IMG/VR virus record: IMGVR_UViG_3300031760_000005
Location: 93,696 to 157,695 of that record
Source: a virus
Taxonomy: Duplodnaviria; Caudoviricetes
Strand: one strand, 5' to 3'
DNA: 64,000 bases
The translations under genes were made by a program, and so were the position numbers. Shown here piece after piece: positions 1 to 46,778 of this stretch. The notes under the pieces are model-generated. The model worked only from the letters and a program-made list of their open reading frames with translations, did not search any database and had not been told where the DNA came from. Every line of letters begins with the position of its first letter. The stretch's first letter is position 1.

Positions 1-418
1 CCGTAGAAACTGATACTGCATTAGGTTCTTGTTGTACTGGAGCTATAGCAGTTTTAATATCTTCAGGAGAGAAATAAACAACATAATACATACCAAGATT
101 AATCTTAGTAATTTTTGTTAATCCTTGTTCAATTATATATGAAGCTAAAGTTTTTCCATCATTAAACAAAGGTTCATTTAATACATTATTTATTGATTCT
201 TCATTTACAAATTTTGAACTATGAAGTTTAATTGATACACCATCTTCACCTAATCCAACAACTACGCCAAGATGTACAGCAAATAAGTTTTTAACATTTG
301 TAATTATATTTTGAATAGGTGTATAATGATTAGTTACGCCTGTTCCAATAACACCATTACCTGGATTAGTATCTGATGTTTTACAATGTTCAACCAATAA
401 TTGAGTTAGTTTTTTCAT
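1..418 (-). CDS. hypothetical protein with N-terminal CTS-like tag; runs off the left window edge
   Basis: Translated by hand: MKKLTQLLVEHCKTSDTNPGNG..., open to position 1; TTATTTTTAAT motif at 452-462 upstream. Confidence 0.8.
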   Translation of the reverse strand, partial: MKKLTQLLVEHCKTSDTNPGNGVIGTGVTNHYTPIQNIITNVKNLFAVHLGVVVGLGEDGVSIKLHSSKFVNEESINNVLNEPLFNDGKTLASYIIEQGLTKITKINLGMYYVVYFSPEDIKTAIAPVQQEPNAVSVST

Positions 419-470
419 ATTTTATACTATTATATAATTTATGTTTATGTAATTAAAAATAACTATAAAT

Positions 471-1136
471 TTAAAATTGTCTCCAAAAATGAAATATTTG
501 TTGGAGTGTAGCTTTTGAAAAGTGCCCTTCAGTAAAACACGCTGTTGGAATTAAACGTGTTGGTAATACATATGAAGCGCCTCTTAAAACTGGAATATAC
601 ATTTTAACGCCAAATCCAATTTTTGCATTTGTTTTTGCTAAATGTTTTACTGCTTGATAAGATATCCATGTATTTGGTTTACCAGTAACTTCATTGAAAT
701 TTTTATCAAAAAATGGTTTAAAATGCTGATAAACTGCTTCAATAATTCTTGTTCTGGTAAATGGTGGATAATAATGTAAATTAATACCAACTTCGCGAAT
801 ATTACCGTCATCCGTTCTTGTTATTCCACAAAATAATGTTAAAGGAGTAGCGTCATAATATTCAAGTTCTTCTTTAAATTTTGGTTGAGAATAATGAAAT
901 AATACAATTTGACCAGGAAGAAGATATCTTTTTGTTGGTTTATTCAATTTTAATAATTCTTGATATGCTAATTTAGAACGAATAACAGTTGGACGTTTAG
1001 CTAATGGATGATTATCAATAGCTTCATTAATGTGAAAATCTTTAATCTCATCTTCACTATATATTTTTCTATCTAAATCTTTTAGATTAAATACATGTCC
1101 TAATGTTGTTTGTTCTGGTTTATAAATTATTGGCAT
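471..1136 (-). CDS. T4 gp2-like DNA end protector protein
   Basis: PGQIVLFHY..PK.KEELEYYD..PL and GINLHYYPP..R motifs typical of gp2. Confidence 0.8.
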   Translation of the reverse strand: MPIIYKPEQTTLGHVFNLKDLDRKIYSEDEIKDFHINEAIDNHPLAKRPTVIRSKLAYQELLKLNKPTKRYLLPGQIVLFHYSQPKFKEELEYYDATPLTLFCGITRTDDGNIREVGINLHYYPPFTRTRIIEAVYQHFKPFFDKNFNEVTGKPNTWISYQAVKHLAKTNAKIGFGVKMYIPVLRGASYVLPTRLIPTACFTEGHFSKATLQQIFHFWRQF

Positions 1137-1447
1137 ACTAAAATCATTAAAATATTTATAAATGTACCTATAACTGAACCAATTATATCAGCTACAATAT
1201 CTTTAAATTCAACTTTAGTTTTACGTAATTTTAAATCAATAATATATTCTTTAAATATTCCTATTAAAACTGTTATAACAAATGATATGCCTAAACTTAT
1301 ATAAGGATTTAATTTAAAACTTAAAAAAATTATAAATAATATATTAGTAATTAATGTTGAACAATATGAATGTAAAAATACATCTTTAGTAGTTGAATCT
1401 ACAAAATTATATATTTTATCAATAATTTTTAATAAAAATTCTTTCAT
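1127..1447 (-). CDS. small membrane protein (VanZ/YfiM-like)
   Basis: Hydrophobic helices with D..LH, KEYIID and DIVADIIG motifs. Confidence 0.55.
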   Translation of the reverse strand: MKEFLLKIIDKIYNFVDSTTKDVFLHSYCSTLITNILFIIFLSFKLNPYISLGISFVITVLIGIFKEYIIDLKLRKTKVEFKDIVADIIGSVIGTFINILMILVCQ

Positions 1448-1921
1448 TTATTTATCATAATATTTTTGAATATAATGAAATACATCTGATATATATTTCC
1501 CTTGATTTTCTTTTATTGATTCTTTGCCAAACCATTTATATTCAGTATGTTCTTTCGACAATTTTATTTCTGGTTTAGATTCCATTTCTATAATAAAATA
1601 TTCAGTATAAGAAACTACTTTATCATCATTACCAGGTCCTAAATGTTCCTGTTTTCCAAAATATTTCATTGAATATTCTTCATTAAATGATAATGTTATT
1701 CCAGTTTCTTCTTTTATTTCTCTAATTAGTGCATCTTTAGTTGTTTTATCTGATTCATTTACTGAACCTCCAACAAACCCCCATTTACCTTTAAATAAAT
1801 CTACATAATTAGATCTTTTAAGTAAAAGAATTTCGTCAGTATCTTTATTGACTAATATTCCATCTACATAATGTTTTATTTCATCTTTACTTTCTTTTAT
1901 ATAGTCAATTAATTGTTTCAT
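1448..1921 (-). CDS. Nudix hydrolase with CTS-like N-terminus
   Basis: Nudix box GGSVNESDKTTKDALIREIKEETGI; LSKEHTEYKW; N-term MKQLIDYIKES. Confidence 0.9.
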   Translation of the reverse strand: MKQLIDYIKESKDEIKHYVDGILVNKDTDEILLLKRSNYVDLFKGKWGFVGGSVNESDKTTKDALIREIKEETGITLSFNEEYSMKYFGKQEHLGPGNDDKVVSYTEYFIIEMESKPEIKLSKEHTEYKWFGKESIKENQGKYISDVFHYIQKYYDK

Positions 1922-1937
1922 TATCTATTATATTTAT

Positions 1938-2363
1938 TTAATATCCAATACATAAACTCATGTCATATGTATTAAATGGATCTTCAACTGTACCAGCAGC
2001 ATGACAATTAAGTGTTCCTACCATAAATGGATTTTCAGAACCTTTAACAAATATTTCTACTTTATATTGTTTCCATTGAGACATTCCATCCTTTGATTTA
2101 CGATATCCGCCATCATCTGGAGCTACCGAAACATCATATTCATGCTCAGGATTTTTTATAGTTTTTAAAGCGTCATCAATATCTTGTCTAACTAATTTAA
2201 CACCAGCCCAATTATCATCGTGATAATAATGACCTGTGGTTTTAGTTTTATCTAATTGTTTATAGATGGCATTTTGAATTTTTTTCTTTTCTGGAGCTTT
2301 AATAGATTTATCCAATTCTCCATTAGAATATGATTCAAAAATTTTATCTTTTAATGTTTTCAT
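1938..2363 (-). CDS. hypothetical protein, CTS-like N-terminus
   Basis: 141 aa ORF in tight operon; MKTLKDKIFES. Confidence 0.75.
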   Translation of the reverse strand: MKTLKDKIFESYSNGELDKSIKAPEKKKIQNAIYKQLDKTKTTGHYYHDDNWAGVKLVRQDIDDALKTIKNPEHEYDVSVAPDDGGYRKSKDGMSQWKQYKVEIFVKGSENPFMVGTLNCHAAGTVEDPFNTYDMSLCIGY

Positions 2364-2394
2364 TGACGTTATTCAATATTTTTTTATAAATCTT

Positions 2395-3564
2395 TTAATC
2401 CATTGCACCAAATCCATCTACAGGTTTGCCATCATCACCATCTAATCCTTTATCTTGTAATTTGACTTTACCATAAGATGTTCCATTAGCGCCAATAACT
2501 TCAAATTCACATGTTGTATGCATTCCTGAAAGCCAACTACCGGTATTACGTGATAATTCTTTAATTTCAGGCATTTTATTGTCAGATTCTAAATAAGCTT
2601 TTGCAGCTAATTTATAAAGATTATCAACACCCCAAGATATACTAGAATAACTACCGAATGATTTTTCCAAAACCTTTTGAACATCATCTTTAACTTTTTC
2701 AATAGCTTCTGCTAATTTTTTAGCTTCTTCATCTTTCTTTATTTTTTCTGCAAATATCTTTTCCCATTTCTTATAGTTTTGTTCTGTTGCTTCTAAGTCA
2801 TCTTCAACTGTATCTAATATAGAAATAATATCTTTATATAAATCTGATTTTTTAAACGCTTCACGTAATTTCTTTATTTTCTTAGAATCTTTTTCATATT
2901 CAGCTTCAGCCTTTTGCCATACTTTATTAGATTTTTTACGCATGGCTTCTTCATTTCTTGAATGAGATGTTTGATCCCACATTTCTTGATATTTACTATT
3001 TACCGAATCAGTTTTTAAAATGTTAAATCTATCATTAAATTCTGGAATATTAACATTATAAGCTTGGGCAATAACACTTAATGCAAGATAAATAGAAAAA
3101 GTAAATCCTGTTGATTCATACCAGAATAATGTAACATCTTTATCCCATGAATTTCTTTTTTCTGGTTGACGTGCTTTTGTAAAACTTGCAGCTTGAATAT
3201 CATCTGTTTCTAATGCAATTCTTGCTTCTTTTGTTGCCTTTTCTACAAAATCAAAGAAATCTTTATTGCCATTTTCATCTTTTCCATAGAAATTATCAAA
3301 TGTACAATTTTGGGCATTAAGAATAAAATTATTATGACCTTGTTTAGAATTCATTGCTGTTTTAAGTTTATCTACAAGAATTTCAAAATTCTCGGTATTT
3401 ATTTTAATTACAGATTCTTCATATTCTTTATATTTATTCTTCATTTCTTCCTTTGTATTTTTAGGCATGCCCGGATAGAAAAATGGTTTACTCATTGATT
3501 GTGGTAAATCTAAATATTTACCATCTTCTTTTGATTCAAATAAAAAATCAATTAAATGTTTCAT
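2395..3564 (-). CDS. hypothetical helical protein, CTS-like N-terminus
   Basis: 389 aa ORF; MKHLIDFLFES. Confidence 0.8.
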   Translation of the reverse strand: MKHLIDFLFESKEDGKYLDLPQSMSKPFFYPGMPKNTKEEMKNKYKEYEESVIKINTENFEILVDKLKTAMNSKQGHNNFILNAQNCTFDNFYGKDENGNKDFFDFVEKATKEARIALETDDIQAASFTKARQPEKRNSWDKDVTLFWYESTGFTFSIYLALSVIAQAYNVNIPEFNDRFNILKTDSVNSKYQEMWDQTSHSRNEEAMRKKSNKVWQKAEAEYEKDSKKIKKLREAFKKSDLYKDIISILDTVEDDLEATEQNYKKWEKIFAEKIKKDEEAKKLAEAIEKVKDDVQKVLEKSFGSYSSISWGVDNLYKLAAKAYLESDNKMPEIKELSRNTGSWLSGMHTTCEFEVIGANGTSYGKVKLQDKGLDGDDGKPVDGFGAMD

Positions 3565-3570
3565 TATTTA

Positions 3571-4197
3571 TTATTCAATATTTTTATATCTTTGTTCGAC
3601 ATCACCATTTGCTCTAATACGAATACGTTCCTGAACGGATGTATGATTCATTCTTTCTCCTCTAAAAATTGTTTTAATTATTATATCAACCTTTGTACCA
3701 TTTTCTTTTATCATCCAAACTGCCCATAAATTCATGGTTCTTGGTCTAGCGCCGCAATATTCAACTTCGCCATTTTTATCTTTGTTATTATTTAACCAGC
3801 ATTGACATTCTATTGTCCATGCATCTACTTTACGTTGTTTATATTCAAATGGCTTAAACTTGCCATCATAGTTCATTTCCATTATGTCATCCCAAGACCA
3901 TCGGAACATATTAACAATTTCGTATTGACCAATTCGCTTACCACCATCACCACCTTTTTCTACTGGTCGATCTTGACGTTGCGTAGCATGATCTCCCATT
4001 CTTAATTCATCACCATCATTAGATGTCCAAACGACGCGATTTCCACTTTTAGTATGATGCCAATCATTACCTTCTAATATAAATTGTTGGAATTCATCAT
4101 CAAGTAATTCTAAAGATGATTCATCCAATTGAAAAATAATTCGACCAAGTTTATTCTCGAAATTATTTCTATTTAAAAATTCGGTAATGTTTTTCAT
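3571..4197 (-). CDS. hypothetical protein (possible RNase-fold, HA..R..R motif), variant CTS-like N-terminus
   Basis: 208 aa; MKNITEFLN...LDES; HATQRQDR and C-terminal IIIKTIFR strand. Confidence 0.7.
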   Translation of the reverse strand: MKNITEFLNRNNFENKLGRIIFQLDESSLELLDDEFQQFILEGNDWHHTKSGNRVVWTSNDGDELRMGDHATQRQDRPVEKGGDGGKRIGQYEIVNMFRWSWDDIMEMNYDGKFKPFEYKQRKVDAWTIECQCWLNNNKDKNGEVEYCGARPRTMNLWAVWMIKENGTKVDIIIKTIFRGERMNHTSVQERIRIRANGDVEQRYKNIE

Positions 4198-4200
4198 TGT

Positions 4201-4590
4201 TTACCAACCACATTTTTCGGAATTAGCATAATCCCACTCAATCATGTAATCTTCCTCTTCTTTAGTTAATGTTTCTTGATCACTAACACGGGCTATTAAA
4301 CTACCAGTAACAAATTTAGCTAAACGTTTTCTTCCTTCTTTTGATAATTTATTTGTTGCTTTAGTTACTTTAAGAATAGCTTGGCATAATTTAGCTACAA
4401 CTGAAGATGATTCAAGTTTTGCAATGTCAAATATACCCTTTTGGTGTTTCTTTATTAAATTTTGAACTAATGGCCAATATTGTTGTTTATATATTGTCTC
4501 ATTATTATCCATCTCCATACATGCATCAAAAATTATCTTATTATCAGCATCTTGAGATGATTCTGTTAAATATGTTTTTATATCTTTCAT
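4201..4590 (-). CDS. hypothetical protein, CTS-like N-terminus
   Basis: MKDIKTYLTES. Confidence 0.75.
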   Translation of the reverse strand: MKDIKTYLTESSQDADNKIIFDACMEMDNNETIYKQQYWPLVQNLIKKHQKGIFDIAKLESSSVVAKLCQAILKVTKATNKLSKEGRKRLAKFVTGSLIARVSDQETLTKEEEDYMIEWDYANSEKCGW

Positions 4591-4595
4591 AATAA

Positions 4596-4874
4596 TTAAA
4601 ATATACTTGGTATTTTTGATAAAATAGAATTTGAAAAATCAAGATGCCATTTATCGATTTTATCTTTCTTATGAGCTTCACAGTATTTTGATATTTCATC
4701 AAATTCAACATTCATTATTTCAACGCCATCTTTATCGATTTCAGTTACATCTGATTGATCTTTGCCATTACCTTTCCAAATTAGAATTTCACGAACTCTA
4801 TTTTCGGTATAATCCCAAAGACACCATTTACCTTTTGGAGTTGATTCATTTATAATATTAGTTAATGTTTTCAT
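4596..4874 (-). CDS. hypothetical protein, CTS-like N-terminus
   Basis: MKTLTNIINES. Confidence 0.7.
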   Translation of the reverse strand: MKTLTNIINESTPKGKWCLWDYTENRVREILIWKGNGKDQSDVTEIDKDGVEIMNVEFDEISKYCEAHKKDKIDKWHLDFSNSILSKIPSIF

Positions 4875-4891
4875 ATTTAATTTAGATATTT

Positions 4892-5395
4892 TTAATCTTC
4901 TAACTCAACAACTAATTTCTTTGTTAGATTTTCTTTTTGTTTATTTAATTCATTTATATTTTCCATTAATTTAGATATTTCATCATCAATTTCACGAATT
5001 TGATCAGCATATTTTGATTTAATAGCACCAATTACAGCATTTTTTGAAATACCGGCAAAATACCATGTACCATCTCCATGAATTCGTTTAATAGAAAATT
5101 CTTTATTTTTTTCATTCGGTTGATCAAATATCAAAAAATGGCTAATTTTATATGGATTTGATTCTAAATCAACACATGTTGTATTAATTTTTCCTTTGGC
5201 AAATGAATCTTCTATACCTCTATTTTCAACAGATTTAATTTTTATTTGTGAACATTTATGTTTAGAATTTTCTTTACTAATTCTATCCATAACTTTATCT
5301 GTATCATGTACAACATATAATATCGTACCTTTATCGATATTTGTATATATGTTTGGCAAATTTCCTTCTTTAATTAAATGACTTAAATTTTTCAT
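4892..5395 (-). CDS. hypothetical protein, CTS-like N-terminus, C-terminal coiled coil
   Basis: MKNLSHLIKEG. Confidence 0.75.
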   Translation of the reverse strand: MKNLSHLIKEGNLPNIYTNIDKGTILYVVHDTDKVMDRISKENSKHKCSQIKIKSVENRGIEDSFAKGKINTTCVDLESNPYKISHFLIFDQPNEKNKEFSIKRIHGDGTWYFAGISKNAVIGAIKSKYADQIREIDDEISKLMENINELNKQKENLTKKLVVELED

Positions 5396-5404
5396 AAATA
5401 ATAT

Positions 5405-5704
5405 TTATACTTGTATTTCATTGAAATTTTTAATTTTAAATTTTCCAGATACAGTATCTTCAGCATATAAAGTTACTTCATATTTTGTATCTATATAGTC
5501 TCCAACAAATACTAATTTATCATCAGATGATTCTTCTTCATCAAAATCAAAACCTAATTTGTACATTACATCTTTAATATCGTCAATTTTGGTCATTTTA
5601 AATCCATGTTTAATGCTACCAAACTCTCTAAGTGCAAGTCCAATTTCTTCATGAAGATCTTCATCTTGAGTTGATTCTAATATAAATTGTTTAATGTCTT
5701 TCAT
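5405..5704 (-). CDS. acidic hypothetical protein, CTS-like N-terminus
   Basis: MKDIKQFILES. Confidence 0.75.
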   Translation of the reverse strand: MKDIKQFILESTQDEDLHEEIGLALREFGSIKHGFKMTKIDDIKDVMYKLGFDFDEEESSDDKLVFVGDYIDTKYEVTLYAEDTVSGKFKIKNFNEIQV

Positions 5705-5733
5705 AATCTTTATTTATATAATTATTTATTGTT

Positions 5734-6162
5734 TTATCTTTTACAATCAAAGAAATAATGAGTATCTGTTTCTGATAAATAAATAAACATTATTTTTTGA
5801 TAATCATCCAATGCACAAACTATTTCAGAAGTATCATCTAATTTATTTTCGGATTTAAGTTTATCAATTATCTTTAAAGCTTTTTTAGGAATTTTTCTAT
5901 CACCATCTTGTATTTTATCTAAAATATTTGTTACTTCGATTACTTTACAATTGTTATTTATCCAGTTTGCCATTTGCGTTGCATCCCACATATGATCTTT
6001 ATCCACTGTGTTTTTGCAATCTCCAAAGTATTTATAATTTCTATAAGATGGTACTCCATCATACATTTCTGGGTTTTCTAATGATGAATCTATAGGAATA
6101 TTATTTAAATCAAGTTTTTCAATTAAAAATGATTCAAACATATAATCAATTAAATTTTTCAT
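5734..6162 (-). CDS. hypothetical protein, CTS-like N-terminus
   Basis: MKNLIDYMFESFLIEKL. Confidence 0.75.
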   Translation of the reverse strand: MKNLIDYMFESFLIEKLDLNNIPIDSSLENPEMYDGVPSYRNYKYFGDCKNTVDKDHMWDATQMANWINNNCKVIEVTNILDKIQDGDRKIPKKALKIIDKLKSENKLDDTSEIVCALDDYQKIMFIYLSETDTHYFFDCKR

Positions 6163-9149: not shown

Positions 9150-9160
9150 TTATTTTTAAT
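9150..9160 (+). promoter_or_regulatory. putative late promoter motif TTATTTTTAAT
   Basis: Exact copies at 452(-), 9150, 13052, 17119(-), 22168, 28781, 35984, 49871(-), 53325, 59350, each 18-50 nt before a co-oriented late-type gene. Confidence 0.6.
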
Positions 9161-9637: not shown

Positions 9638-11035
9638 ATGAAAAACTTAGGTCAATTTATTAATGAAAATGATTTAAAAAAAGTTGAAGGTAATGCACCT
9701 AAACCAGATCCAAAGAGTAAAAATAGAATTAAATGGGCACTTGATGAACCAACTAATGATGACGCATCAGATGATATTGATATCCATTCTAAAGAAAATA
9801 CAAAATCTGTAAAACAATTAATTGATAAATTTAGAACAGAAGAACCTTTCTTTATACAAGGTGAAGCTGGTTGGGGTAAAACATCTATCGTAAAAAAACT
9901 TGCTAAAAAATTTGGTAAAAAAGTTATTACAGTATATCTTGATAAAGCTGAGGCAACAGACCTTGGTGGTATACCTGTTCCTGTTGAAGGTAATAAATCA
10001 AAAGCTAAAGTAAAAAATGCTGTAGGTGAATTAGAAGAAAGAGAATTTGCTGCCCAAATTAAGGCTATGCCATCTTGGGCAAAAATAATGTATGATAATC
10101 CAGATACAGACTTCTTATTATTCTTTGATGAAATGAACCAAGCTATGCCTGATGTAATGAATGCTCTTATGCCTATTGTTTTGGAAAACGAAATTTGTGA
10201 AATTAAGTTCGACAACTTTTTTGTTGGTGCAGCAGGTAACTATGAACATGAAAACAGAGGAGCTATTTCTGAATTATCTGGACCACTTAAATCTCGTTTC
10301 AAACCAATCATTGAATGGACATCAGGTGAAGAAGCTTGGCCACAAGCATTTAAACATTTACACGCAAAATGGGATAAATATTTGTCAAAAGAATTTATTA
10401 ACTTATTTGAAAAAAATGGCGCTGAAATATTTGAAAACCCACGTGAACTTGAGCATAAAGTATTTCAATATATTTATCGTATAAAAATGACTAATGATGA
10501 TGGATATGAAGACGATAATGATGCAGAAAAATATTTATGGCGTCTTGAAGATTTAGCTAAAGAAAATTTATCAAGAACAGCAAAAGCTAAATTAAGCGAA
10601 TTAGCTGATGCTATGTTTGCATTTGTTGCTGGTACAGATTATAATGGAAAAACATCTAAACCAAAACGTGAATCAAATAAAGATATTAATATGATTCCTG
10701 AACAAGTAAGAGTTACTGTAGAACAAGCAATGAAAACTGGTTATCAAAGTATAAAAGTTGGTGATAAAGAATATAAATTTGGTATTTCTAAAGAAAATAT
10801 TGGAGAAATAGTTAATGAGAAAGAGTGTAATGCAGAAATGTTACAAAAACTTATTAAGAATTTAGAATTAGGAGGTAAGAAATTTAAATATGAAAAATCT
10901 CCTGATTGGAAAAAACTTGGTTTAGAAGATCCATTAGATGATAAATGGAATTTTAAAATTGGCTCAGATACAAAATTAGGTAATAATTCAGAACCTAAAA
11001 AGAAAAAAACTATGAAAGATTACGCAAATTCATAA
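9638..11035 (+). CDS. MoxR/dynein-related AAA+ ATPase with CTS-like N-terminus
   Basis: Walker A GEAGWGKT, DLGGIP, Walker B LLFFDEMN, AAGN, PLKSRF. Confidence 0.85.
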   Translation: MKNLGQFINENDLKKVEGNAPKPDPKSKNRIKWALDEPTNDDASDDIDIHSKENTKSVKQLIDKFRTEEPFFIQGEAGWGKTSIVKKLAKKFGKKVITVYLDKAEATDLGGIPVPVEGNKSKAKVKNAVGELEEREFAAQIKAMPSWAKIMYDNPDTDFLLFFDEMNQAMPDVMNALMPIVLENEICEIKFDNFFVGAAGNYEHENRGAISELSGPLKSRFKPIIEWTSGEEAWPQAFKHLHAKWDKYLSKEFINLFEKNGAEIFENPRELEHKVFQYIYRIKMTNDDGYEDDNDAEKYLWRLEDLAKENLSRTAKAKLSELADAMFAFVAGTDYNGKTSKPKRESNKDINMIPEQVRVTVEQAMKTGYQSIKVGDKEYKFGISKENIGEIVNEKECNAEMLQKLIKNLELGGKKFKYEKSPDWKKLGLEDPLDDKWNFKIGSDTKLGNNSEPKKKKTMKDYANS

Positions 11036-13022: not shown

Positions 13023-13053
13023 AAACTGGTACATTTTTATGTACCAGTTTTTT
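13023..13053 (+). terminator. intrinsic terminator
   Basis: AAACTGGTACAT-TTTT-ATGTACCAGTTT followed by T tract. Confidence 0.75.
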
Positions 13054-13079
13054 ATTTTTAATTAAAAAATAATTTATTT

Positions 13080-13691
13080 ATGAAACAATTAAATAATTAT
13101 ATAATAGAAAAATTACAAATTGGTTCTAATACTAAGCTGGGCGATAATTATTATCATCCTAAAACCACAGATGAATTAAAAGAGTTAATTAAAAAACTTA
13201 TAAAAGAACGTGGTAATAATGCTGATTTGAATGATATAGATACTTCAAAAATAACTAATATGTCTTATTTATTTTATAAGTCAGATTTTAATGGGAATAT
13301 ATCTCGATGGGATGTTAGTAATGTTACTACTATGAATGAAATGTTTTATAATTCTAAATTTAATGGAAATATATCAGATTGGGATGTTAGTAAAGTTACT
13401 GATATGGAATCTATGTTTTATAATTCAGAATTTAATCAAGATATATCAAATTGGGATGTTAGTAATGTTCAATATATGCATGCTATGTTTCAATCTTCTA
13501 AATTTAATGGTGATATATCTAAATGGGATGTAAGTAATGTTAAAGATATGACTTCTATGTTTAATGATTCAAAATTTAATCAAGATATATCAAACTGGAA
13601 TGTTAATAATGTTAAATATATGATTAACATATTTAAAAATTCTCCATTAGAAAAAAATACACCTAAATGGTATAATGAAAAGAATAAATAA
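13080..13691 (+). CDS. BspA/DUF285-type repeat protein (5 repeats)
   Basis: 24-aa repeat FNGDISxWDVSxVTxMxxMFxxS. Confidence 0.9.
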   Translation: MKQLNNYIIEKLQIGSNTKLGDNYYHPKTTDELKELIKKLIKERGNNADLNDIDTSKITNMSYLFYKSDFNGNISRWDVSNVTTMNEMFYNSKFNGNISDWDVSKVTDMESMFYNSEFNQDISNWDVSNVQYMHAMFQSSKFNGDISKWDVSNVKDMTSMFNDSKFNQDISNWNVNNVKYMINIFKNSPLEKNTPKWYNEKNK

Positions 13692-14505
13692 TTATATAAT
13701 AGAAAAATTACAAATTGGTTCTAATACTAAGCTGGGCAATAACTATAATTATTGCCCTAAAACTAAAGATGAACTAAAAGAGTTAGTGCAAAAATTAATT
13801 AAAGAACGTGGTAATGAAGCTGATTTAAATGATATTGACACATCAGAAATAACTGATATGTGTGGAATATTTATAAATTCTCAATTTAATGGTGACATAT
13901 CAAAATGGGATGTTAGTAATGTTACTACTATGAATGAAATGTTTTATAAGTCTGAATTTAACAGTGACATATCAAAGTGGGATGTCAGCAATGTTAAAAA
14001 TATGAGTTGGATGTTTAAAAACTCTCAATTTAATGGCGATATAAAAAATTGGGATGTTAGTAATGTTACTACTATGAATGAAATGTTTTATAATTCTAAA
14101 TTTAATGGAAATATATCAGATTGGGATGTTAGTAATGTTATTGATATGTGTGGTATGTTTGCAAAATCTAATTTTAATGGTAATATTTCTAGTTGGGATG
14201 TTAGTAAAGTTACTGATATGCGTGGTATGTTTCATAAATCAAAATTTAATGGAAATATATCTAAATGGGATGTTAGTAAAGTTACTCATATGAAAACTAT
14301 GTTTTGTGACTCTGAATTTAACGGCGATATATCAAAGTGGGACGTTAGTAATGTTACTGATATGTGGTTTATGTTTACGGGTTCTAAATTTAATAAAGAT
14401 ATATCAAACTGGGATGTAAGTAAAGTTACTGATATGGAGGGGATGTTTAATGTTTCTCCATTAGAAAAAAATCCGCCTAAATGGTATAATGAAAAGAATA
14501 AATAA
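13675..14505 (+). CDS. BspA/DUF285-type repeat protein (8 repeats)
   Basis: Same repeat; overlaps previous gene by 17 nt. Confidence 0.9.
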
Positions 14506-15031
14506 TTATATAATAGAAAAATTACAAATTGGTTCTAATACTAAATTTGGTGATAATTATAATTATCACCCTAAAACTAGAGATGAATTATATGATTTAA
14601 TTGAAAAACTCATAGAAGAACGTGGTAATGAAGCTGATTTGAATGATATAGATGTTAGTAAAATAACGGATATGAATGAATTATTTTATGATTCGGATTT
14701 TAATGGCGATATATCAAACTGGGATGTTAGTAATGTTACTGATATGGGTTGGATGTTCGCATATTCAAAATTTAATAGCGATATATCCCAATGGGATGTA
14801 AGTAAAGTTACTGATATGAGAGGTATGTTTTGTGATAGCAAATTTAATGGTGATATATTTAAATGGGATGTTAGTAATGTAACTAATATGGAGGATATGT
14901 TTTATAATTCAGATTTTAATGGTGATATAAAAGATTGGGATGTTAATAATGTAAAAAATATGGAAGATATATTTTTAAATTCTCCTTTAGAAAAAAATCC
15001 ACCTAAATGGTATAATGAAAAGAATAACTAA
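14489..15031 (+). CDS. BspA/DUF285-type repeat protein (4 repeats)
   Basis: Same repeat and caps. Confidence 0.9.
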
Positions 15032-15545
15032 TTATATAACGGAGAAATTACAAATCGGTTCTAATACTAAGCTGGGCAATAACTATAATTATTGCCCTAA
15101 AACACGAGATGAATTAAAAGAATTACTTAAACAACTTATAAAAAAACGTGGTAATGAAGCTGATTTGAATGATATAGATACATCTAAAATAACTGATATG
15201 TCAAGTTTGTTTCAACTTAGCGTATTTAATGGTGATATATCAGAATGGAATGTTAGTAATGTAACTAATATGAAATATATGTTTGCATATGCAAGATTTA
15301 ACGGAGATATATCTAAATGGAATGTTTCTAAATTAAATAATATGTTTGAAATTTTTTATAATTCGGAATTTAATGGAGATATATCACAATGGGATGTTAG
15401 CAATGTTACTAATATGACTTACGCATTTTATGGGTCTAAATTTGATGGCGATATATCAGAATGGAATGTTAAAAATGTTAAAAATATGGAAGATATATTT
15501 TTAAATTCTCCATTAGAAAAAAATCCACCTAAATGGTATAAATAA
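15015..15545 (+). CDS. BspA/DUF285-type repeat protein (4 repeats)
   Basis: Same repeat and caps. Confidence 0.9.
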
Positions 15546-16782: not shown

Positions 16783-17100
16783 TTAATCAGCTTTAACAAG
16801 CATATCTGATTGATCTGGTTTTTTAGGATTACCAAATTTATCAAGTGCTTTAATACACATTCCTGAATCATCCCAGTCATACTCAAATAGTTTAGTGTCC
16901 ATTTTAACTTGACCATGAATAATATTGGGAACTTCTTTATAATCCACACTTGTAATAATTGCTTGACGACCATCTTTTGTCATTACTGGTTTTTCATCTT
17001 GAATCCATTGGTCATCAATAGGTTCGCCTTTTTGTTCGAAAACTTTATTAGATCTAACTCTAAATAATTCTTCTTTAAGTATATCTTCAATATTTCTCAT
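16783..17100 (-). CDS. hypothetical protein, CTS-like N-terminus
   Basis: MRNIEDILKEE; KPVMTKDGRQA; late motif at 17119-17129. Confidence 0.7.
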   Translation of the reverse strand: MRNIEDILKEELFRVRSNKVFEQKGEPIDDQWIQDEKPVMTKDGRQAIITSVDYKEVPNIIHGQVKMDTKLFEYDWDDSGMCIKALDKFGNPKKPDQSDMLVKAD

Positions 17101-17136
17101 AATACTAAATAAATATTTATTAAAAATAATTCAATA

Positions 17137-17775
17137 TTATTTTGTCATATTATTTATTTCTTTTAAATAGTCGTGATATCCATATTTAAATGCGCTATCT
17201 TTATATAAACCTTCATTCATACACCATCTATCTAATTCAAACCAGTCAATAATTTGACATTTTTCTCCAAATTTATTAACTATTGGAAGTTTTTTAATTC
17301 CAATAGCATGATCATCAATAATATAATCAGCATATATTTTGCGAGAATGATCATCTATAATTTTATCCCATAAAGGATTTTCATTTACTGAATAAAATTT
17401 AATACCATTATCTTCACATAATTTTATTACAGGATCTATTAAATCTATTTCTGAATAATCTAATGTATGAAAATTAATTTTTTTAAGATAATTTATAGAA
17501 ATAGGATTACCATTTAAATATCTTGTACCATTATATGTTGGATCAGTATAAATATCAAATAAGCTTTTACAACATACTGGATATTTATAATTACGTTGTG
17601 TAAATAAAATAAGTTTATGTCCAGCATTTTGTAAAGCATTTAATACTTCAAATGCTCCAGGAATAATTGGACCAATATAAGGCCATTCATCTAAACATAT
17701 TGTATTATCAAAATCAATACAAATTACTTTAGAATCTCCTATTTTATCATAATATTCATCTGCTCTATATTTCAT
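17137..17775 (-). CDS. HAD-superfamily hydrolase
   Basis: ICIDFDNTI motif I, GHKLILFTQR, KIYADYIIDD. Confidence 0.8.
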   Translation of the reverse strand: MKYRADEYYDKIGDSKVICIDFDNTICLDEWPYIGPIIPGAFEVLNALQNAGHKLILFTQRNYKYPVCCKSLFDIYTDPTYNGTRYLNGNPISINYLKKINFHTLDYSEIDLIDPVIKLCEDNGIKFYSVNENPLWDKIIDDHSRKIYADYIIDDHAIGIKKLPIVNKFGEKCQIIDWFELDRWCMNEGLYKDSAFKYGYHDYLKEINNMTK

Positions 17776-17793
17776 AATTATTATAAATAAAAT

Positions 17794-18120
17794 TTAACAT
17801 TTAATTATTTTATCTTTTATATCTTCATACATTACATAGTTTACTTGTGCAGCAGAAATCGGTACTGATATCCACCAATTTTTTCCATATAACTCTTTAT
17901 GTATTTTATCAATTAAATCATTTTCTTCTTTTGTATAATCTTTTATCCATGGGCCACAAAGATCATTACCTTGTGTTTTTTCGAACCATTCATTATATCC
18001 GGCTTTAGCCTTTTCTTCAATCCTCTTCCATAACTCTATTTCATTTCCTTTAAGAGTATATGTTACATTAAAAAGATCTATTCCAAAAAATTTAGCTATC
18101 TTTTTTAAAAATTTTATCAT
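17794..18120 (-). CDS. hypothetical protein
   Basis: 108 aa, ATGA-coupled operon. Confidence 0.65.
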   Translation of the reverse strand: MIKFLKKIAKFFGIDLFNVTYTLKGNEIELWKRIEEKAKAGYNEWFEKTQGNDLCGPWIKDYTKEENDLIDKIHKELYGKNWWISVPISAAQVNYVMYEDIKDKIIKC

Positions 18121-18311
18121 ATTTCTTTATTTAACCAATTATTAAATTTTTTATTGCAAATTTTAAATAATGTTAAAATACCAAACAACGATATCATAAC
18201 AATATTAAATATGAAAATACTAATATCGGTAAAAAATGAAACGATTATACCTAAATATAACCAAATAGTTACAATTATTATAAATATTACATCTTTATTT
18301 GTTTTAATCAT
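18117..18311 (-). CDS. small two-TM membrane protein
   Basis: Two hydrophobic stretches. Confidence 0.6.
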   Translation of the reverse strand: MIKTNKDVIFIIIVTIWLYLGIIVSFFTDISIFIFNIVMISLFGILTLFKICNKKFNNWLNKEI

Positions 18312-18513
18312 TTTTCTCTAATATAAATGTCCAATCACTACCATTTTTTGATTTAGCCATTTTCCAATCTTTAATAGTCCATCCTTCATTTAAGAATTTT
18401 TCTAATATTGGGCTTTCATAATAAGCATAATCTGACCATCTATTTGTTTTTTTGGGATCTAAATAATGTGTTTCCCAACCTAAATTACCATCAATATCTA
18501 TTACTTTTATCAT
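18304..18513 (-). CDS. hypothetical protein
   Basis: 69 aa, overlapping start/stop coupling. Confidence 0.6.
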   Translation of the reverse strand: MIKVIDIDGNLGWETHYLDPKKTNRWSDYAYYESPILEKFLNEGWTIKDWKMAKSKNGSDWTFILEKND

Positions 18514-19193
18514 AATCTAAATTTACTTCCAAAAACTTGCATTAATGTATTAAATTCCCATACACTATCAATATCCGCAGTACCTATCGTATCACAATCA
18601 CAATTATCAATATGTACATGCCATTCAGTACCACGATTATTCTCTTTATTATCAATCTCGATTTTTATTGGTGAATAATCGTTTGTTGTCCATTTACGAA
18701 ATGCATTATAATTATCAAATGTTTGGTCAATTATATCCGAAAATCCGGCTTCATATAACATTTCTTTAGTTATTTGTGTTTCTTTATCTTCTTGAGCCTT
18801 TTCTGAAGTTATATACTCAATAAACTTTAATTGATTATCATATTCCTCATTATATTGTCTATATTCATATGATGTCATTAATCTAACTTCAACATCATCT
18901 TTTTCTAATGTTCCTTTATCTAAAATGCAAGCTAACTTCAAAGCTATATCAGGAAATTCAGTAACCAATATTGATTTGATGTTTTCACCATAAATTAAAT
19001 TAATTGCATCTTTCATTGTTGTAACATCTGTATAATCTTTTATAACATCATACAATAATGCATATGCAAGTAATTTTACTTCAAAATCTTTATTAAGTAA
19101 TAAATTAATTGATCCTAAATATTTATCTTGATATTTTGAACCAACTTGAAATATACCGAAGAAATAATTATGCTGTTTTATTTCCATTCTCAT
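18510..19193 (-). CDS. hypothetical protein
   Basis: 227 aa in operon. Confidence 0.7.
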   Translation of the reverse strand: MRMEIKQHNYFFGIFQVGSKYQDKYLGSINLLLNKDFEVKLLAYALLYDVIKDYTDVTTMKDAINLIYGENIKSILVTEFPDIALKLACILDKGTLEKDDVEVRLMTSYEYRQYNEEYDNQLKFIEYITSEKAQEDKETQITKEMLYEAGFSDIIDQTFDNYNAFRKWTTNDYSPIKIEIDNKENNRGTEWHVHIDNCDCDTIGTADIDSVWEFNTLMQVFGSKFRL

Positions 19194-19977
19194 ATTCCTT
19201 TTTAATTTTTGCTAATTTTTCTTCTTGTTCACGTTTCTTGGCATCAATTTCATCTTTCCATTCTTTATCTAGAGCTTCTTTCCAATTTGGACCAAGATCT
19301 TCAAATTCATATGCTAAATCTTCATCAGTATATCCCTCATCTCTATACCAAAATAATTTAGGATTACGTTCTTCTATTTCTATATCTTTGCCTGTCTTTT
19401 CTTTCCAGTATTTTTTTACTGTTTCAGGATTGGATGTTGGCGAAGCTCCTAAAGCACATGTAATTCTAAATGATGAATCTTCATTGTCAAATCTATAAAA
19501 ATCTTTACATTCGCCAATAAGTTCCATTACTTTATTAGTAACATCTTTAGCTACACGTTCTGCAATTTCACCATTACCATCATATTCATCATAAATTATA
19601 TCAAACACGTGTTCTTTCAATGGTGCAACCTTTTCATATCCTCTATGACCACATTCAATTAAATTACCTTCTTCATCAAATTGATCAGGAATATATTTAT
19701 CCTTTGTACCACCTTTAGTCAAATATTCTTCAACAACACTAACATCATCTCTCCAATGAGGAGTAATATTATATGCTTCGAGATATTTATTTACAATATA
19801 TGTATATTCTTCTTGTGACAAATAATGTTGTTCATATACACGTTCATCTTTGTCACGTATACCATCTTTAAATTCTTGAACTATTTGATCCCAATCCGCA
19901 GATGGTTGAGCTTTAGCATACATTTCTTTATAACAATCATGTATGGCTTTATTTAATACTTCTTTTCTTGTTAACAT
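19168..19977 (-). CDS. hypothetical protein
   Basis: 269 aa acidic ORF. Confidence 0.75.
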   Translation of the reverse strand: MLTRKEVLNKAIHDCYKEMYAKAQPSADWDQIVQEFKDGIRDKDERVYEQHYLSQEEYTYIVNKYLEAYNITPHWRDDVSVVEEYLTKGGTKDKYIPDQFDEEGNLIECGHRGYEKVAPLKEHVFDIIYDEYDGNGEIAERVAKDVTNKVMELIGECKDFYRFDNEDSSFRITCALGASPTSNPETVKKYWKEKTGKDIEIEERNPKLFWYRDEGYTDEDLAYEFEDLGPNWKEALDKEWKDEIDAKKREQEEKLAKIKKEYENGNKTA

Positions 19978-19989
19978 AACTTTAATATT

Positions 19990-20349
19990 TTAAATTATAT
20001 CTTCTTCATGTATATTATCTTTGTCGTTAATATATCGAATATTAATTGACTTACATGCTTCTTCAGCAGTATTGAATAAAATATCCGAAGTAAACCAAAC
20101 AGGCATATCAAATTCCCCTTTATAATCAGGTGTATATTTGTCGTTATTGTTTATAAAGCCAGATTTATCAGTCTTATATTCACCTAATCTATATAACTCC
20201 AAAGATTCTTTTACAAATGGATTAATATGAGAAATTCCATTAGTATAACGTTCTATACATCTTACTTCAATAATTATAGCCTGATATATCTCGTATTCTC
20301 CAACAAAATATACCACATCTCCTAAATTAAATTTAGTATTTTTATCCAT
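19990..20349 (-). CDS. hypothetical protein (SH3/KOW-like N-terminus)
   Basis: TKFNLGDVVYFV pattern. Confidence 0.65.
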   Translation of the reverse strand: MDKNTKFNLGDVVYFVGEYEIYQAIIIEVRCIERYTNGISHINPFVKESLELYRLGEYKTDKSGFINNNDKYTPDYKGEFDMPVWFTSDILFNTAEEACKSINIRYINDKDNIHEEDII

Positions 20350-20460
20350 TTAATTCCAAATAAAAGTTGTTAATATGAAATATATTAATGTAAGTACAGC
20401 CCAAATACAAAGTACTTGAGCTATAGCTTTTATATATATGTTATCAAACCATTTAATCAT
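20350..20460 (-). CDS. 36-aa single-TM protein (not in ORF track)
   Basis: MIKWFDNIYIKAIAQVLCIWAVLTLIYFILTTFIWN; ATGA overlap with YqeY gene, abuts next ATG. Confidence 0.6.
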   Translation of the reverse strand: MIKWFDNIYIKAIAQVLCIWAVLTLIYFILTTFIWN

Positions 20461-20885
20461 ACCAATTTTGCTCTAACGCATTCAGATACTAATTTTCCAT
20501 CAGCGCCAAGTAATGCATCTTTAACTTCTTTAATTACTAATCCCATTGATTTCTTTTCAATACCACTTGGATAATATTGTTGAAGATATTCAATAATATC
20601 TTCCTTAGTAGGTAATGATGGCATCAATGTTTCAAGAACTGCTGATTGAGCCAATTCTACTTCAGCTAATTCAGGACGATTATTATCCATATAAATTTGA
20701 GCAGTATTCTTACGCTCTTCAATCATCTTTTTAATAAGATTTATTTCCTCAGCATCGTTATATGGCTTTGCATTCTTTGCTGTATTAAATTCAAGAATCT
20801 TAGCTTTTAAAAGCTTATATGTTTCAGAAGCAACCTTATCTTTTGATTTCATTGCTTCCATAATTTTTGCATTAATATCTATCAT
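20457..20885 (-). CDS. yqeY: GatB/YqeY domain protein
   Basis: I..AMKSKDK...KLLKA, RK.TAQIY...RPELAE.E, KKSMGLVIK...ADGKLVS. Confidence 0.85.
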   Translation of the reverse strand: MIDINAKIMEAMKSKDKVASETYKLLKAKILEFNTAKNAKPYNDAEEINLIKKMIEERKNTAQIYMDNNRPELAEVELAQSAVLETLMPSLPTKEDIIEYLQQYYPSGIEKKSMGLVIKEVKDALLGADGKLVSECVRAKLV

Positions 20886-20887
20886 AA

Positions 20888-21301: not shown

Positions 21302-21305
21302 AGGT

Positions 21306-22049: not shown

Positions 22050-22211
22050 AATTTAAATTAATTAAAATTCTTATATTTAAATAGACAAATATTTTTGATA
22101 ATTCATTAATATAAAAGATTTTTTTCATTTTTTAATGAAATAATAATGGTAAAAAAATCATGAAAAATTATTTTTAATAAAATAGAAAGATTTTAGAAAT
22201 AAATCATACAT

Positions 22212-28777: not shown

Positions 28778-28825
28778 GAATTATTTTTAATAAAGAATTA
28801 AACAAATTTAATATATAAAATACTT

Positions 28826-35955: not shown

Positions 35956-35985
35956 AAATGGGGTAGTTAAAACTACTCCATTTTT
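35956..35985 (+). terminator. intrinsic terminator fused to late motif
   Basis: AAATGGGGTAGTT-AA-AACTACTCCATTTTT. Confidence 0.7.
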
Positions 35986-36025
35986 ATTTTTAATTAAATA
36001 AATGTTTATTTATATATAATATTTT

Positions 36026-40578: not shown

Positions 40579-40579
40579 A

Positions 40580-40607: not shown

Positions 40608-40627
40608 CATTTATAAATATCAATTAT

Positions 40628-44027: not shown

Positions 44028-44114
44028 ATATTGTGCATAAATTTATTCTTTAATAAAAATAAGCTAAAAAATTGTTTTATTTATTTCTATTTTAAAAAAA
44101 AATACGTATTTATT

Positions 44115-44573: not shown

Positions 44574-44604
44574 GGCGGTATTCTATATATATTCTAGAAT
44601 TTAA

Positions 44605-44997
44605 TTACTCTTCTTCTTTTTTCTCTTTATTTTTTTCATCATCATTTTGCTCTTCTGGTTCACTAAATTCATCAATAGTATTATTAAATTTAGCTACTGT
44701 TTCTGCAAATTTCTTTGTCTTTTGAGCATATTGTTCATCAGATGAATTTTTAGTAGATTTTCTTAAAGTATATGCATATTGTTGAAGAATATCTTGTACA
44801 GAAGAAAGTTTATCAAAATTATCTGATGTTACATTTACTGTAAGTTTATTATCATCAACAGTGCAATATTCCATTTCTTCGAAAGATTTTAAAGTATCTT
44901 CTGCATTTTCTAAATCAGTAAAATTAAATGTTATTGATTTAAAATCTTCAGATTCATTAATAATTGATTCATTTATAAAATCTTGTAATCTTTTCAT
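44605..44997 (-). CDS. acidic hypothetical protein, doubled CTS-like site
   Basis: MKRLQDFINESIINES. Confidence 0.75.
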   Translation of the reverse strand: MKRLQDFINESIINESEDFKSITFNFTDLENAEDTLKSFEEMEYCTVDDNKLTVNVTSDNFDKLSSVQDILQQYAYTLRKSTKNSSDEQYAQKTKKFAETVAKFNNTIDEFSEPEEQNDDEKNKEKKEEE

Positions 44998-45020
44998 AGT
45001 TATTATATAATTATTTTATT

Positions 45021-45269
45021 TTACCACATGGCTTTATCATATAATCTCATAAATGCATCTTCGGTAAATTCTTTAGAATCCCAGTTATCTTGTAAATCGA
45101 TAAATGCTTTGAGACGTTCCCAATCTTTCTTTTTACCTTTTGTTATGTCATTATGCATAAATTTAAGCCAACCAACTAATATTGTCATTTCATCTTCTTT
45201 AAGATTTTCAATATTATATTTATTACCTACTTGAGTTGACTCATTTAATATTTCATTTAATGTTTTCAT
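45021..45269 (-). CDS. hypothetical protein, CTS-like N-terminus
   Basis: MKTLNEILNES. Confidence 0.7.
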   Translation of the reverse strand: MKTLNEILNESTQVGNKYNIENLKEDEMTILVGWLKFMHNDITKGKKKDWERLKAFIDLQDNWDSKEFTEDAFMRLYDKAMW

Positions 45270-45285
45270 TATAATTATTTTATTT

Positions 45286-45729
45286 TTATTTTAAATCCTC
45301 TAAATCCCAATCTGAATAGTATTTAAGTACACCATCTTGTATTTCTTGTACTTGACTAAATAATTCTTTAAATCTTTTTTTATCAGTTTCTTCAAAATCT
45401 TTAATATCTTTTTCTAAAAATGCTCCACTTTCAGCAAGACAAATACTATTTCTTTTTCCTCCTTTACCACGCAATATATGATCATATGTATATTTCATGT
45501 TTTCATATGCTTCAGGATATTTTTTGAGAATTTCTGTCATTTCACTTTGTATTGCATCAAGTTTTTTAGAATCCTTTTTAGCAACACCATTTAATATTTT
45601 AACACTTAATCCATTTAATAATGCTTTTAACATTTTATACCCAATAATTCCTGCAATAACTGCTGCGGCACCACCAAGAACGGATTCATTAATTGTTGAT
45701 TCATCAATTTTTTGTTGTAAACTTTTCAT
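45286..45729 (-). CDS. hypothetical protein, doubled CTS-like site followed by hydrophobic helix
   Basis: MKSLQQKIDESTINES|VLGGAAAVIAGIIGY. Confidence 0.75.
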   Translation of the reverse strand: MKSLQQKIDESTINESVLGGAAAVIAGIIGYKMLKALLNGLSVKILNGVAKKDSKKLDAIQSEMTEILKKYPEAYENMKYTYDHILRGKGGKRNSICLAESGAFLEKDIKDFEETDKKRFKELFSQVQEIQDGVLKYYSDWDLEDLK

Positions 45730-45757
45730 ATCTTTATATAATTATTTTATTTTTATT

Positions 45758-46324
45758 TTATTTACTTCCTTTAATATAATTTCCAGATACTTTTAAATTT
45801 TTAAATTGTCTTACAACTATATCTTTAATTATTATATTATTTTTTCCAATACCTGTCTGAACAAGTATTAAACAAGCATCTGGGCCAATTTGTTTTTGTT
45901 TATTAGTTAAATATATACCTTCATTATTTAATTTATGATAACATTTAATTTCAAAACATAAATCACCTAAATCTAAATCATATGATTTATATGATCCATT
46001 ATCTATATCATCATGGGTTATCATTTTTTCAAATTCACTACCAAAATAATCTTCAGAATTTACTTCTTTATTTAACAAATAAATTAAATATTTTTCAATT
46101 AATATTCCTGCAGCAGAATATAACTCATATATTTCATTATTATCTTCTTCAGAATTTGTTAAAAAATTAATATCTGTTCCATCAACATTAACTGTTAAAG
46201 TATTATTTGAAGATATAAGTTCTGCTAATTTATTTGTTAATTGCATTTCTATTTCATTTAGATTATCATGAAAATTATTTTGAAATTTTGATTCAATCAA
46301 TAAACTGTCTTTTAATGTTTTCAT
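45758..46324 (-). CDS. PD-(D/E)XK nuclease-like (DUF3883/NOV-C-like) protein, CTS-like N-terminus
   Basis: G...E...YL, SYDL.....FEIK, IYLTNKQ; MKTLKDSLLIES. Confidence 0.55.
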   Translation of the reverse strand: MKTLKDSLLIESKFQNNFHDNLNEIEMQLTNKLAELISSNNTLTVNVDGTDINFLTNSEEDNNEIYELYSAAGILIEKYLIYLLNKEVNSEDYFGSEFEKMITHDDIDNGSYKSYDLDLGDLCFEIKCYHKLNNEGIYLTNKQKQIGPDACLILVQTGIGKNNIIIKDIVVRQFKNLKVSGNYIKGSK

Positions 46325-46343
46325 ATCTTATTTATAATTTTAT

Positions 46344-46778
46344 TTATGATAATGCCATATAGAATGTATTTTTACGAACTTCACCACCAATTATATAATA
46401 TCTATCAATTGGGTATTTATTTTGTAATTTTTCATAAGCTTCATAACTCATATCGTCATCCACAAATACTATAGAAGCTAATGTACTACCCCATTTTGCT
46501 GATTCATGTTCTTTATCAAATACAACTATAATATTATGTGCATTTTTACTTTCTCCGGATATATCAGTTACTCCTTTTAACAAACCTTTTGGATCAGATT
46601 TATCTGGACAAGTACCCATATTTTTCTTTATTTGTTGTTCTTCATATTTACGATATTCAGCAGCAGTTTTAGAATCAGTTGTTATAAAACCTCCATCCCA
46701 TTTCTTTTCAGGCCAAGGTCCCATATACATTCTAACTATATTTGAACTTTCATTTAAAACTTCACTTAAAGTTTTCAT
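46344..46778 (-). CDS. hypothetical protein, CTS-like N-terminus (start reassigned)
   Basis: MKTLSEVLNES at 46778, immediately after stop of upstream gene. Confidence 0.7.
   Translation of the reverse strand: MKTLSEVLNESSNIVRMYMGPWPEKKWDGGFITTDSKTAAEYRKYEEQQIKKNMGTCPDKSDPKGLLKGVTDISGESKNAHNIIVVFDKEHESAKWGSTLASIVFVDDDMSYEAYEKLQNKYPIDRYYIIGGEVRKNTFYMALS

Follow-up and report, generated by a model that had tools for sequence, protein, structure and literature searches.

The stretch of DNA analysed here, called the window below, is the last 64 kb (64,000 nucleotides) of a 157,695-bp linear viral contig (IMG/VR record IMGVR_UViG_3300031760_000005, positions 93,696-157,695), and our subject is a ten-residue N-terminus, called the tag below, which is shared by many of the proteins encoded on it. 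Coordinates refer to the window unless the contig or another genome is named. A first-pass annotation of the window had listed 19 starts of open reading frames (ORFs) with the pattern M-[KR]-x-[LI]-x-x-x-[ILM]-x-E and had read this pattern as a portable capsid targeting sequence (CTS) like that of phage T4. All 19 listed starts do open real ORFs with this pattern and, as had been said, serine is the residue most often found after Glu10 (11 of the 19).

The tagged genes of the window lie in two clusters and in a few places outside them. At the left end, the tagged ORF at 2..418 (-) (MKKLTQLLVEH) runs off the window, which holds its 139 N-terminal amino acids (aa); the full ORF has 358 aa (contig 93037-94113), its orthologue in an uncultured relative described below (G003) has a tag-like start, and a candidate late promoter, TTATTTTTAAT, stands 44 nt upstream of it at 452..462 (-). 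The first cluster, on the same strand, opens with a tagged Nudix hydrolase of 157 aa (1448..1921, MKQLIDYIKES) and continues with tagged ORFs without known family at 1938..2363 (141 aa, MKTLKDKIFES), 2395..3564 (389 aa, MKHLIDFLFES), 4201..4590 (129 aa, MKDIKTYLTES), 4596..4874 (92 aa, MKTLTNIINES), 4892..5395 (167 aa, MKNLSHLIKEG), 5405..5704 (99 aa, MKDIKQFILES) and 5734..6162 (142 aa, MKNLIDYMFES), all on the minus strand. Among them, at 3571..4197 (-), lies one of the two variants already pointed out in the first-pass annotation, a protein of 208 aa which begins MKNITEFLNR and has no Glu10 (MKNITEFLNRNN). On the plus strand, a tagged AAA_5 (MoxR-like) ATPase of 465 aa (9638..11035, MKNLGQFINEN) is followed by four overlapping tagged DUF285 paralogues (13080-13691, 13675-14505, 14489-15031 and 15015-15545), which are headed by TTATTTTTAAT at 13052-13062 and share the tag MK[QR][LI][NT]NYI[IT]EKLQIGS. 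A further tagged ORF of 105 aa (16783..17100 (-), MRNIEDILKEE), whose orthologue in G003 is tagged as well, has TTATTTTTAAT 29 nt upstream, at 17119-17129 (-). The second cluster is again on the minus strand and consists of a protein of 130 aa with two tandem I-N-E-S sites (44605..44997, MKRLQDFINESIINES; its G003 orthologue is tagged MKSLVETLNES), proteins of 82 aa (45021..45269, MKTLNEILNES) and 147 aa (45286..45729, MKSLQQKIDESTINES, followed by a hydrophobic membrane-like segment), the second variant, in which Glu stands at residue 11 (45758..46324, 188 aa, MKTLKDSLLIE, MKTLKDSLLIES), and a protein of 144 aa (46344..46778, MKTLSEVLNES), whose start at 46778 is an internal ATG of an ORF which the ORF list opens at GTG 46832. 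Next to it, at 46780..47031 (-), we found a third variant missing from the first-pass list: a protein of 83 aa beginning MKNLLNYLDD, where Asp replaces Glu (MKNLLNYLDDYF). The tag is absent from all three operons, metabolic and other, which had been named as lacking it (17137-22049, 49932-53252 and 60596-63568).

We carried out the genome-wide motif scan against shuffled controls which the first-pass annotation had proposed as a check. On the whole contig the pattern matches 33 of the 206 ORFs, that is about one gene in six, and there are five more near-variants. When residues 2-31 of each protein are shuffled, the mean number of matches falls to 0.12 (maximum 3), and when the N-terminal columns are permuted among proteins it is 3.5 (maximum 9). 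As an internal control, the same pattern was found at 27 of the 49,018 non-N-terminal positions of the contig proteins. Leu or Ile at residue 4 occurs in all 33 matches since the pattern demands it, and the same holds for Ile, Leu or Met at residue 8 and for Glu10; two further preferences fall at positions outside the pattern, namely Tyr or Phe at residue 7 (22 of 33, most of the others being aliphatic) and Ser at residue 11 (15 of 33). The tag consensus is M-K-x-[L/I]-x-x-[Y/F]-[I/L]-x-E-S, in which positions 3, 5, 6 and 9 vary without constraint. The codons are mixed: Ser11 is written TCA (12 cases) or AGT (3), Leu4 is written TTA, CTT or CTA, and Leu is exchanged for Ile; the DNA upstream is dissimilar among tagged genes. 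Mixed codons and unlike flanking DNA mean that selection has acted on the peptide and not on the DNA. The motif is far more frequent than expected by chance, is under selection at the level of the protein and is modular.

The bodies behind the tag were compared by BLASTP after removal of the first 14 residues, with a cut-off of E 1e-3. Eight tagged proteins of the contig form a single DUF285 paralogue family, which includes the four tandem genes at 13080-15545; the other tagged proteins have no match to one another at this cut-off. The claim of about 20 unrelated bodies must thus be corrected for the four DUF285 paralogues and stands for the rest: about 25 proteins of the contig, or 16 groups if the window is taken by itself, can be called unrelated. 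No nuclease-like body, which had also been announced, was recognised, Pfam giving only Nudix, AAA_5 and DUF285; with the Nudix protein, the AAA_5 protein and one DUF285 paralogue set aside, no Pfam family was assigned to 27 of the 29 scanned proteins which carry the tag or a variant of it. In two of the tagged proteins the tag is soon followed by a hydrophobic, membrane-like segment (45286-45729 (-), ..VLGGAAAVIAGIIGY..; contig 21226-22041 (+), ..TAGIAFIAVLCGAC..), and they call to mind gp47 of phage SPN3US, an ejection protein with a membrane segment.

The Nudix hydrolase shows how the tag relates to the body which carries it. Among its 120 closest homologues in public metagenomes (53-99% identical), 101 keep the tag while the variable positions drift (for example MKSLKELILEN, MKDITSFINEN and MKKLTDWINEN). 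The few untagged homologues start right at the first strand of the fold, which means that the tag is an add-on. In the AlphaFold2 model of the tagged protein, residues 1-10 have a pLDDT of 48 with a short helix at 4-10, residues 11-15 are coil, and the confident fold begins at residue 16 (pLDDT 78-96). For the AAA_5 ATPase, nearly all of the 120 homologues listed open with M-x-x-L-x-x-F-[VI], or with the same pattern one residue shorter, and have Glu at residue 10, 13 or 14. This pattern suggests a two-part signal made of a fixed front and a cut site at variable distance, an arrangement like that of the T4 internal proteins IPII and IPIII, with 10 residues, as against IPI, with 19. Since the Nudix, AAA+ and DUF285 folds are of separate origin, the tag has been joined to bodies several times; as in a T4-type CTS, it stands on unrelated mature proteins of which untagged homologues exist.

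The corresponding N-termini in T4 (NC_000866) are MKTYQEFIAE/A for IPII and IPIII, MAKINELLRE/S for gp24, MELITELFDE/D for Alt and MLKEQLIAE/A for gp22, and gp23 is cut at ..FLTE/AEIGG. According to a review of the T4 work, mutagenesis of the IPIII tag with amber suppressors has assigned targeting mainly to residues 4 and 7 and processing to residues 8 and 10 (PMC9026906, section 2.6). The conserved positions of the tag, 4, 7, 8 and 10, are exactly those mapped in this way in the T4 CTS. We built a position-specific scoring matrix (PSSM) from the tags of the contig alone and ran it on the N-termini of 264 T4 ORFs: gp61.1 ranks first, IPII and IPIII second and third, and gp24 fourth, so that three of the four known 10-residue propeptides of T4 land in the top four. 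The first of these, gp61.1 (18966-19130 (-) in NC_000866), is a 54-aa hypothetical protein which begins MKTFKEFIKE, nearly the CTS of IPII and IPIII. The likeness to the T4 CTS, which is removed by the prohead protease gp21, covers the length of 10 residues, the place at the extreme N-terminus, Lys2, a hydrophobic or aromatic residue at 4 and an aromatic one at 7, Ile or Leu at 8, an end in (Leu/Ile)-x-Glu followed by a small residue, and portability onto unrelated bodies. It differs from T4 in that residue 4 is Leu or Ile where T4 has Tyr, and in number: T4 has a handful of tagged proteins, whereas the half genome studied here has 33-38 tagged ORFs out of 206, and a 410-kb relative up to about 80. 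The tagged set here also includes enzymes and a large repeat-protein family. Moreover, this contig holds no protease gene.

The contig has a G+C content of 26% and a CheckV completeness of 55% (for the whole 157.7 kb). It comes from an uncultured rumen jumbo phage whose full genome is probably near 290 kb; bovine and sheep gut metagenomes from several studies hold near-identical DNA. The portal gene (53369..55150 (+), phrog_213, untagged), which has TTATTTTTAAT at 53325-53335, is of T4 type, and this places the phage in the T4 superfamily, near phage PAU, Tenacibaculum phage PTm1 and huge gut phages; by portal similarity within a phage collection, its nearest relatives are huge uncultured phages, PAU, PTm1 and the Lak megaphages.

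A strict DNA form of the tag pattern was found at 47 loci in IMG/VR, many of them in low-G+C contigs of 130-435 kb. At these loci the tag stands on 111 of 580 ORFs, and on up to 12 of 19 in one locus. Three near-complete tag-bearing genomes were retained: G001 (410 kb), G002 (376 kb) and G003 (294 kb, with terminal repeats), in which the strict pattern occurs 80, 30 and 8 times respectively, against 0 or 1 in the controls. G003 shares 52 of the 206 contig proteins, at 25-59% identity, and several orthologue pairs between it and the contig are tagged on both sides at about 28-37% identity. The prohead protease, whose identification had been suggested as a further check, was not found on the contig; all three genomes, on the other hand, encode a PF03420 protease (Peptidase S77) and a PF07068 (gp23-type) capsid protein. 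Each of the three proteases forms a fusion with a scaffold-like C-terminal part (G001 82910-84607, G002 about 212552-214165, G003 206474-208051 (-)), and the junction F-E-S-L-N-E-S is invariant; it resembles the [I/L]-N-E-S of many tags. The three capsid proteins begin ..W-x-K-[LM]-L-[TK]-E. The scaffold-like part contains 8-10 tandem Trp-rich repeats (EEFAPEVQNWV), and a similar 564-aa "scaffolding protein and protease" is annotated in PTm1. In G001, the 27 co-oriented genes at 68.0-82.1 kb include 16 matches to the pattern and 6 near-variants, and this run sits immediately upstream of the protease-scaffold and capsid genes. The ORF starting at 81728 in this genome was considered as the protease-scaffold gene and rejected: it is a separate tagged ORF of 115 aa, and the protease starts MANKKCMVFET. 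Elsewhere in G001, about 45 genes start with MKKLNQFI[TI]E in long tandem arrays with a spacing of 450-800 bp (for example 232428-257188 (-) and 266330-271676 (+)); these genes may have arisen by expansion of one paralogue family, as with DUF285 in the window. A predicted complex between the protease domain of G003 and a tagged protein of G003 had a score of 0.01, which is no evidence either way.

The closest cultured relative is the Sphingomonas phage PAU, with a portal 35% identical; its host is now placed in Sphingobacterium (White and Suttle 2013, as cited in PMC10537231). Here 20 genes start with MK[TS][LI]xx[LI][YF]E (control 0), a near-identical tag on unrelated small proteins. It is one residue shorter than that of the contig, with 9 residues and Glu at residue 9, and many copies run on into what looks like a second site, K-L-N-E-[SA]; the PAU capsid N-terminus holds ..GAKLNES, where the PTm1 capsid shows ..GAQITES. 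An S77-type protease is annotated in both phages. In PAU, 15 of the 20 tagged genes surround the portal, protease, scaffold and capsid genes at 100-121 kb; those of the head module are gp142-gp146, gp149, gp150 and gp152-gp154, and gp152 is the scaffold itself. The tags of PAU are thus concentrated in the head module and on the scaffold, unlike those of the contig phage, which are scattered over several clusters.

Two candidate promoter motifs bear on the timing of the tagged genes. The first, TTATTTTTAAT, occurs 20 times on the contig; 16 copies are correctly oriented 28-134 nt before a gene start, 14 of them within 28-60 nt, and the motif often follows directly after a terminator hairpin. 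In the window, besides the copies at 13052-13062, 17119-17129 (-) and 53325-53335 mentioned above, it stands at 9150-9160, 22168-22178, 28781-28791, 35984-35994 and 59350-59360. A shorter core, TTATTTTTA(AT), stands 28-60 nt before gene starts: in G003 it is found 5' of the sheath, capsid and protease genes, and on the contig 5' of the portal gene, of three tail-region operons, of an ORF of 3727 aa and of six tagged genes. TTATTTTTAAT and TTATTTTTA are a candidate late promoter of the phage clade. As we read the gene map, units headed by TTATTTTTA(AT) contain 18 of the 33 tagged genes. The second motif, TTTGAA-N16-20-YTATAWT, is sigma-70-like and stands 5' of small genes without known function; we regard it as a candidate early promoter, which hints that the host recognises standard -35/-10 elements. 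Copies of the form TTTGAA(T)TTT-N-TTCTATATT lie on the contig outside the window, all on the minus strand, at 13398, 34024, 34850, 37448, 54256, 54587, 61944, 67061, 68542 and 85819; G003 has 43 occurrences of the sigma-70-like motif. It was found directly 5' of a tagged gene in 0 of 12 cases here and 0 of 36 in G003. The pattern of the late motif gives partial support to a synthesis of tagged proteins while proheads assemble, and it is not uniform.

We read the shared N-terminus as a T4-type CTS with cleavage, used on a much larger scale than in T4, and give this reading a probability of roughly 0.6. The first-pass annotation had arrived at the same T4-like reading; what speaks for it is the match to the T4 CTS, the ranking by the PSSM, the protease and capsid genes of the relatives, the location in the head module and the Nudix add-on, while the absence of the protease and capsid genes from the contig leaves it incomplete. 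We propose the following course of events. The tag, a short amphipathic helix, would bind through residues 4 and 7 to the scaffolding core of the assembling prohead, and the bound protein would be enclosed as the shell forms. A prohead protease of the gp21 type (Peptidase S77) would then cut after Glu10, reading [I/L]-x-E at residues 8-10, and the mature protein would be freed inside the head, able to leave with the DNA at infection. Core binding, cleavage at Glu10, presence in the virion, injection and any role against host defences are all steps which we infer; delivery as an arsenal, which the first-pass annotation had put forward, we grade lower than targeting and cleavage.

Several observations weigh against this reading. 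Profile searches found neither a Peptidase S77 prohead protease (PF03420) nor a gp23-type capsid gene (PF07068) on the 55%-complete contig. We take both genes to sit on the missing part of the genome, the contig being a fragment; the link to the protease rests in consequence on relatives with 25-59% identity. The tagged proteins are acidic (median pI 5.3; 6% are basic, against 23% of the untagged ORFs), unlike the internal proteins of T4, which are basic. With one gene in six tagged here and 80 strict DNA matches in G001, there are far more of them than the known protein load of any phage head, and most tagged genes of the contig do not adjoin head genes. Three tagged genes belong to operons with the early-type promoter (contig 11421, 35501 and 35889), and neither motif stands directly upstream of the clusters at 1448-6162 and 44605-47031. 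The top match of the PSSM, gp61.1, is not known as a head protein, which shows that a CTS-like start is no proof of packaging; either gp61.1 is a head protein which has so far escaped notice, or it warns of a lack of specificity in the motif. In PAU, the tagged gp142 and gp154 bear the depositor label "internal capsid protein", the basis of which we could not trace. Finally, a pattern scan found no tag in PTm1, Lak-B4 and LR756500, of which PTm1 and Lak have related portals. This means that the tag is not general to all portal relatives.

One alternative accepts the signal for core binding and cleavage and holds that most tagged proteins are parts of the assembly, extra scaffold or core fillers which are digested and expelled and do not reach the host as cargo, in the manner of T4 gp22, gp67 and gp68. 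The PAU scaffold is itself tagged; the T4 core proteins gp22 and gp67 open with similar helices and are degraded (PMC5694885); and the tagged proteins are acidic, as are gp67 and gp68. Against this, folded enzymes (Nudix, AAA+) are found among the bodies, together with a diversified repeat family, with conservation over hundreds of metagenomic contigs which is hard to square with disposable filler, and in T4 the same tag serves the delivered proteins IPI-III and Alt. We consider this alternative unlikely as a general account: such a role is possible for some tagged proteins and unlikely for the conserved enzymes.

It is also improbable that the tag has no link with the capsid and addresses some other common partner, be it a phage or host chaperone or unfoldase, a system for degradation or for timing, some site on the membrane, or an enzyme which makes modifications and reads a shared leader. 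In favour of such a partner are gp61.1, with its CTS-like N-terminus and no known head role, and the many tagged genes which lie far from structural genes here; it would not explain why the tag agrees with the T4 CTS position by position, why tagged genes cluster in the head modules of PAU and G001, or why the motif recurs at the capsid and protease-scaffold sites. As for a leader read by a radical-SAM enzyme, no match to PF04055 above the cut-off was found on the contig, the sole match (13.4 bits) lying inside the 3727-aa ORF.

T4-type phages shuffle gene cassettes, and one could imagine a feature of the nucleotides with a functionless peptide, either a patch of recombination homology or an enhancer of translation initiation in the absence of a Shine-Dalgarno sequence (the genome has little G+C, no Shine-Dalgarno sequence is evident upstream of the tagged starts shown, and a second codon AAA is a common feature of expression); the codon pattern contradicts a signal that resides in the nucleotides only, and we hold it very improbable, as the residue class is kept through varied codons for Ser, for Leu/Ile at 4 and for Ile/Leu at 8, flanking DNA is not conserved, highly expressed structural genes are untagged, and the pattern persists in Nudix orthologues at 53-76% identity.

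Among other known systems, the phiKZ-like giants (phiKZ, 201phi2-1, SPN3US) resemble a head loaded through a CTS in having many head-internal proteins (about 50 head proteins), a prohead protease which cuts after x-x-Glu, and propeptides thought to target the prohead (PMC5694885). They differ in that these propeptides mostly have at least 100 residues and share no single short tag, in the cleavage motif, which is A/S/G-x-E, and in lineage. The principle of the CTS is already known from T4, and the new part is the scale of its expansion; we found no published account of an expanded CTS system in Bacteroidota jumbo phages, within an incomplete coverage of the literature.

A wider reading, to which we give somewhat less than even chances, is that a clade of rumen and gut jumbo phages uses the ten-residue CTS as a general label for loading dozens of proteins into the head, about 35 of them here, on half a genome, and about 80 in the 410-kb relative, to be delivered with the DNA. 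The load would comprise enzymes, a MoxR-like ATPase, proteins with membrane segments and a diversified repertoire of DUF285 binders, and the virion might then be seen as a programmable device for the injection of many proteins, of a scale which has been described for no phage. If the tag works as it does in T4, the protein payload in the virions of a widespread group of gut and rumen jumbo phages would be far larger and more varied than that of any phage studied, and this payload could be read directly from the genome by a ten-residue motif. It would supply a list of proteins which are candidates for host takeover and counter-defence and which almost all lack a known family, account for some of the "dark matter" in jumbo phage genomes, and offer a second natural address tag for putting foreign proteins into phage heads.

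The remaining features of the genome can be described briefly. The large terminase, with a T4-type N-terminal domain, is encoded at 56781..58709 (+) and is untagged; PHROGs gave no function to most of the large structural ORFs in the window. At 63872-63943 (-), ARAGORN calls a tRNA which it labels tRNA-Pyl; its anticodon is CTA, that of an amber suppressor. The long structural genes are open in the standard code, which means that recoding of TAG is at most partial. The 3727-aa ORF is a single ORF outside the window (contig 69534-80717 (-)) with the late-type motif upstream, and its homologue in G003 has 2279 aa, with 28% identity. Finally, an ORF of 573 aa at 48128-49849 (-) has no ATG near its 5' end and is opened by the ORF list at GTG; its true start codon is uncertain, and a late-type motif (contig 143576) stands just 5' of it.

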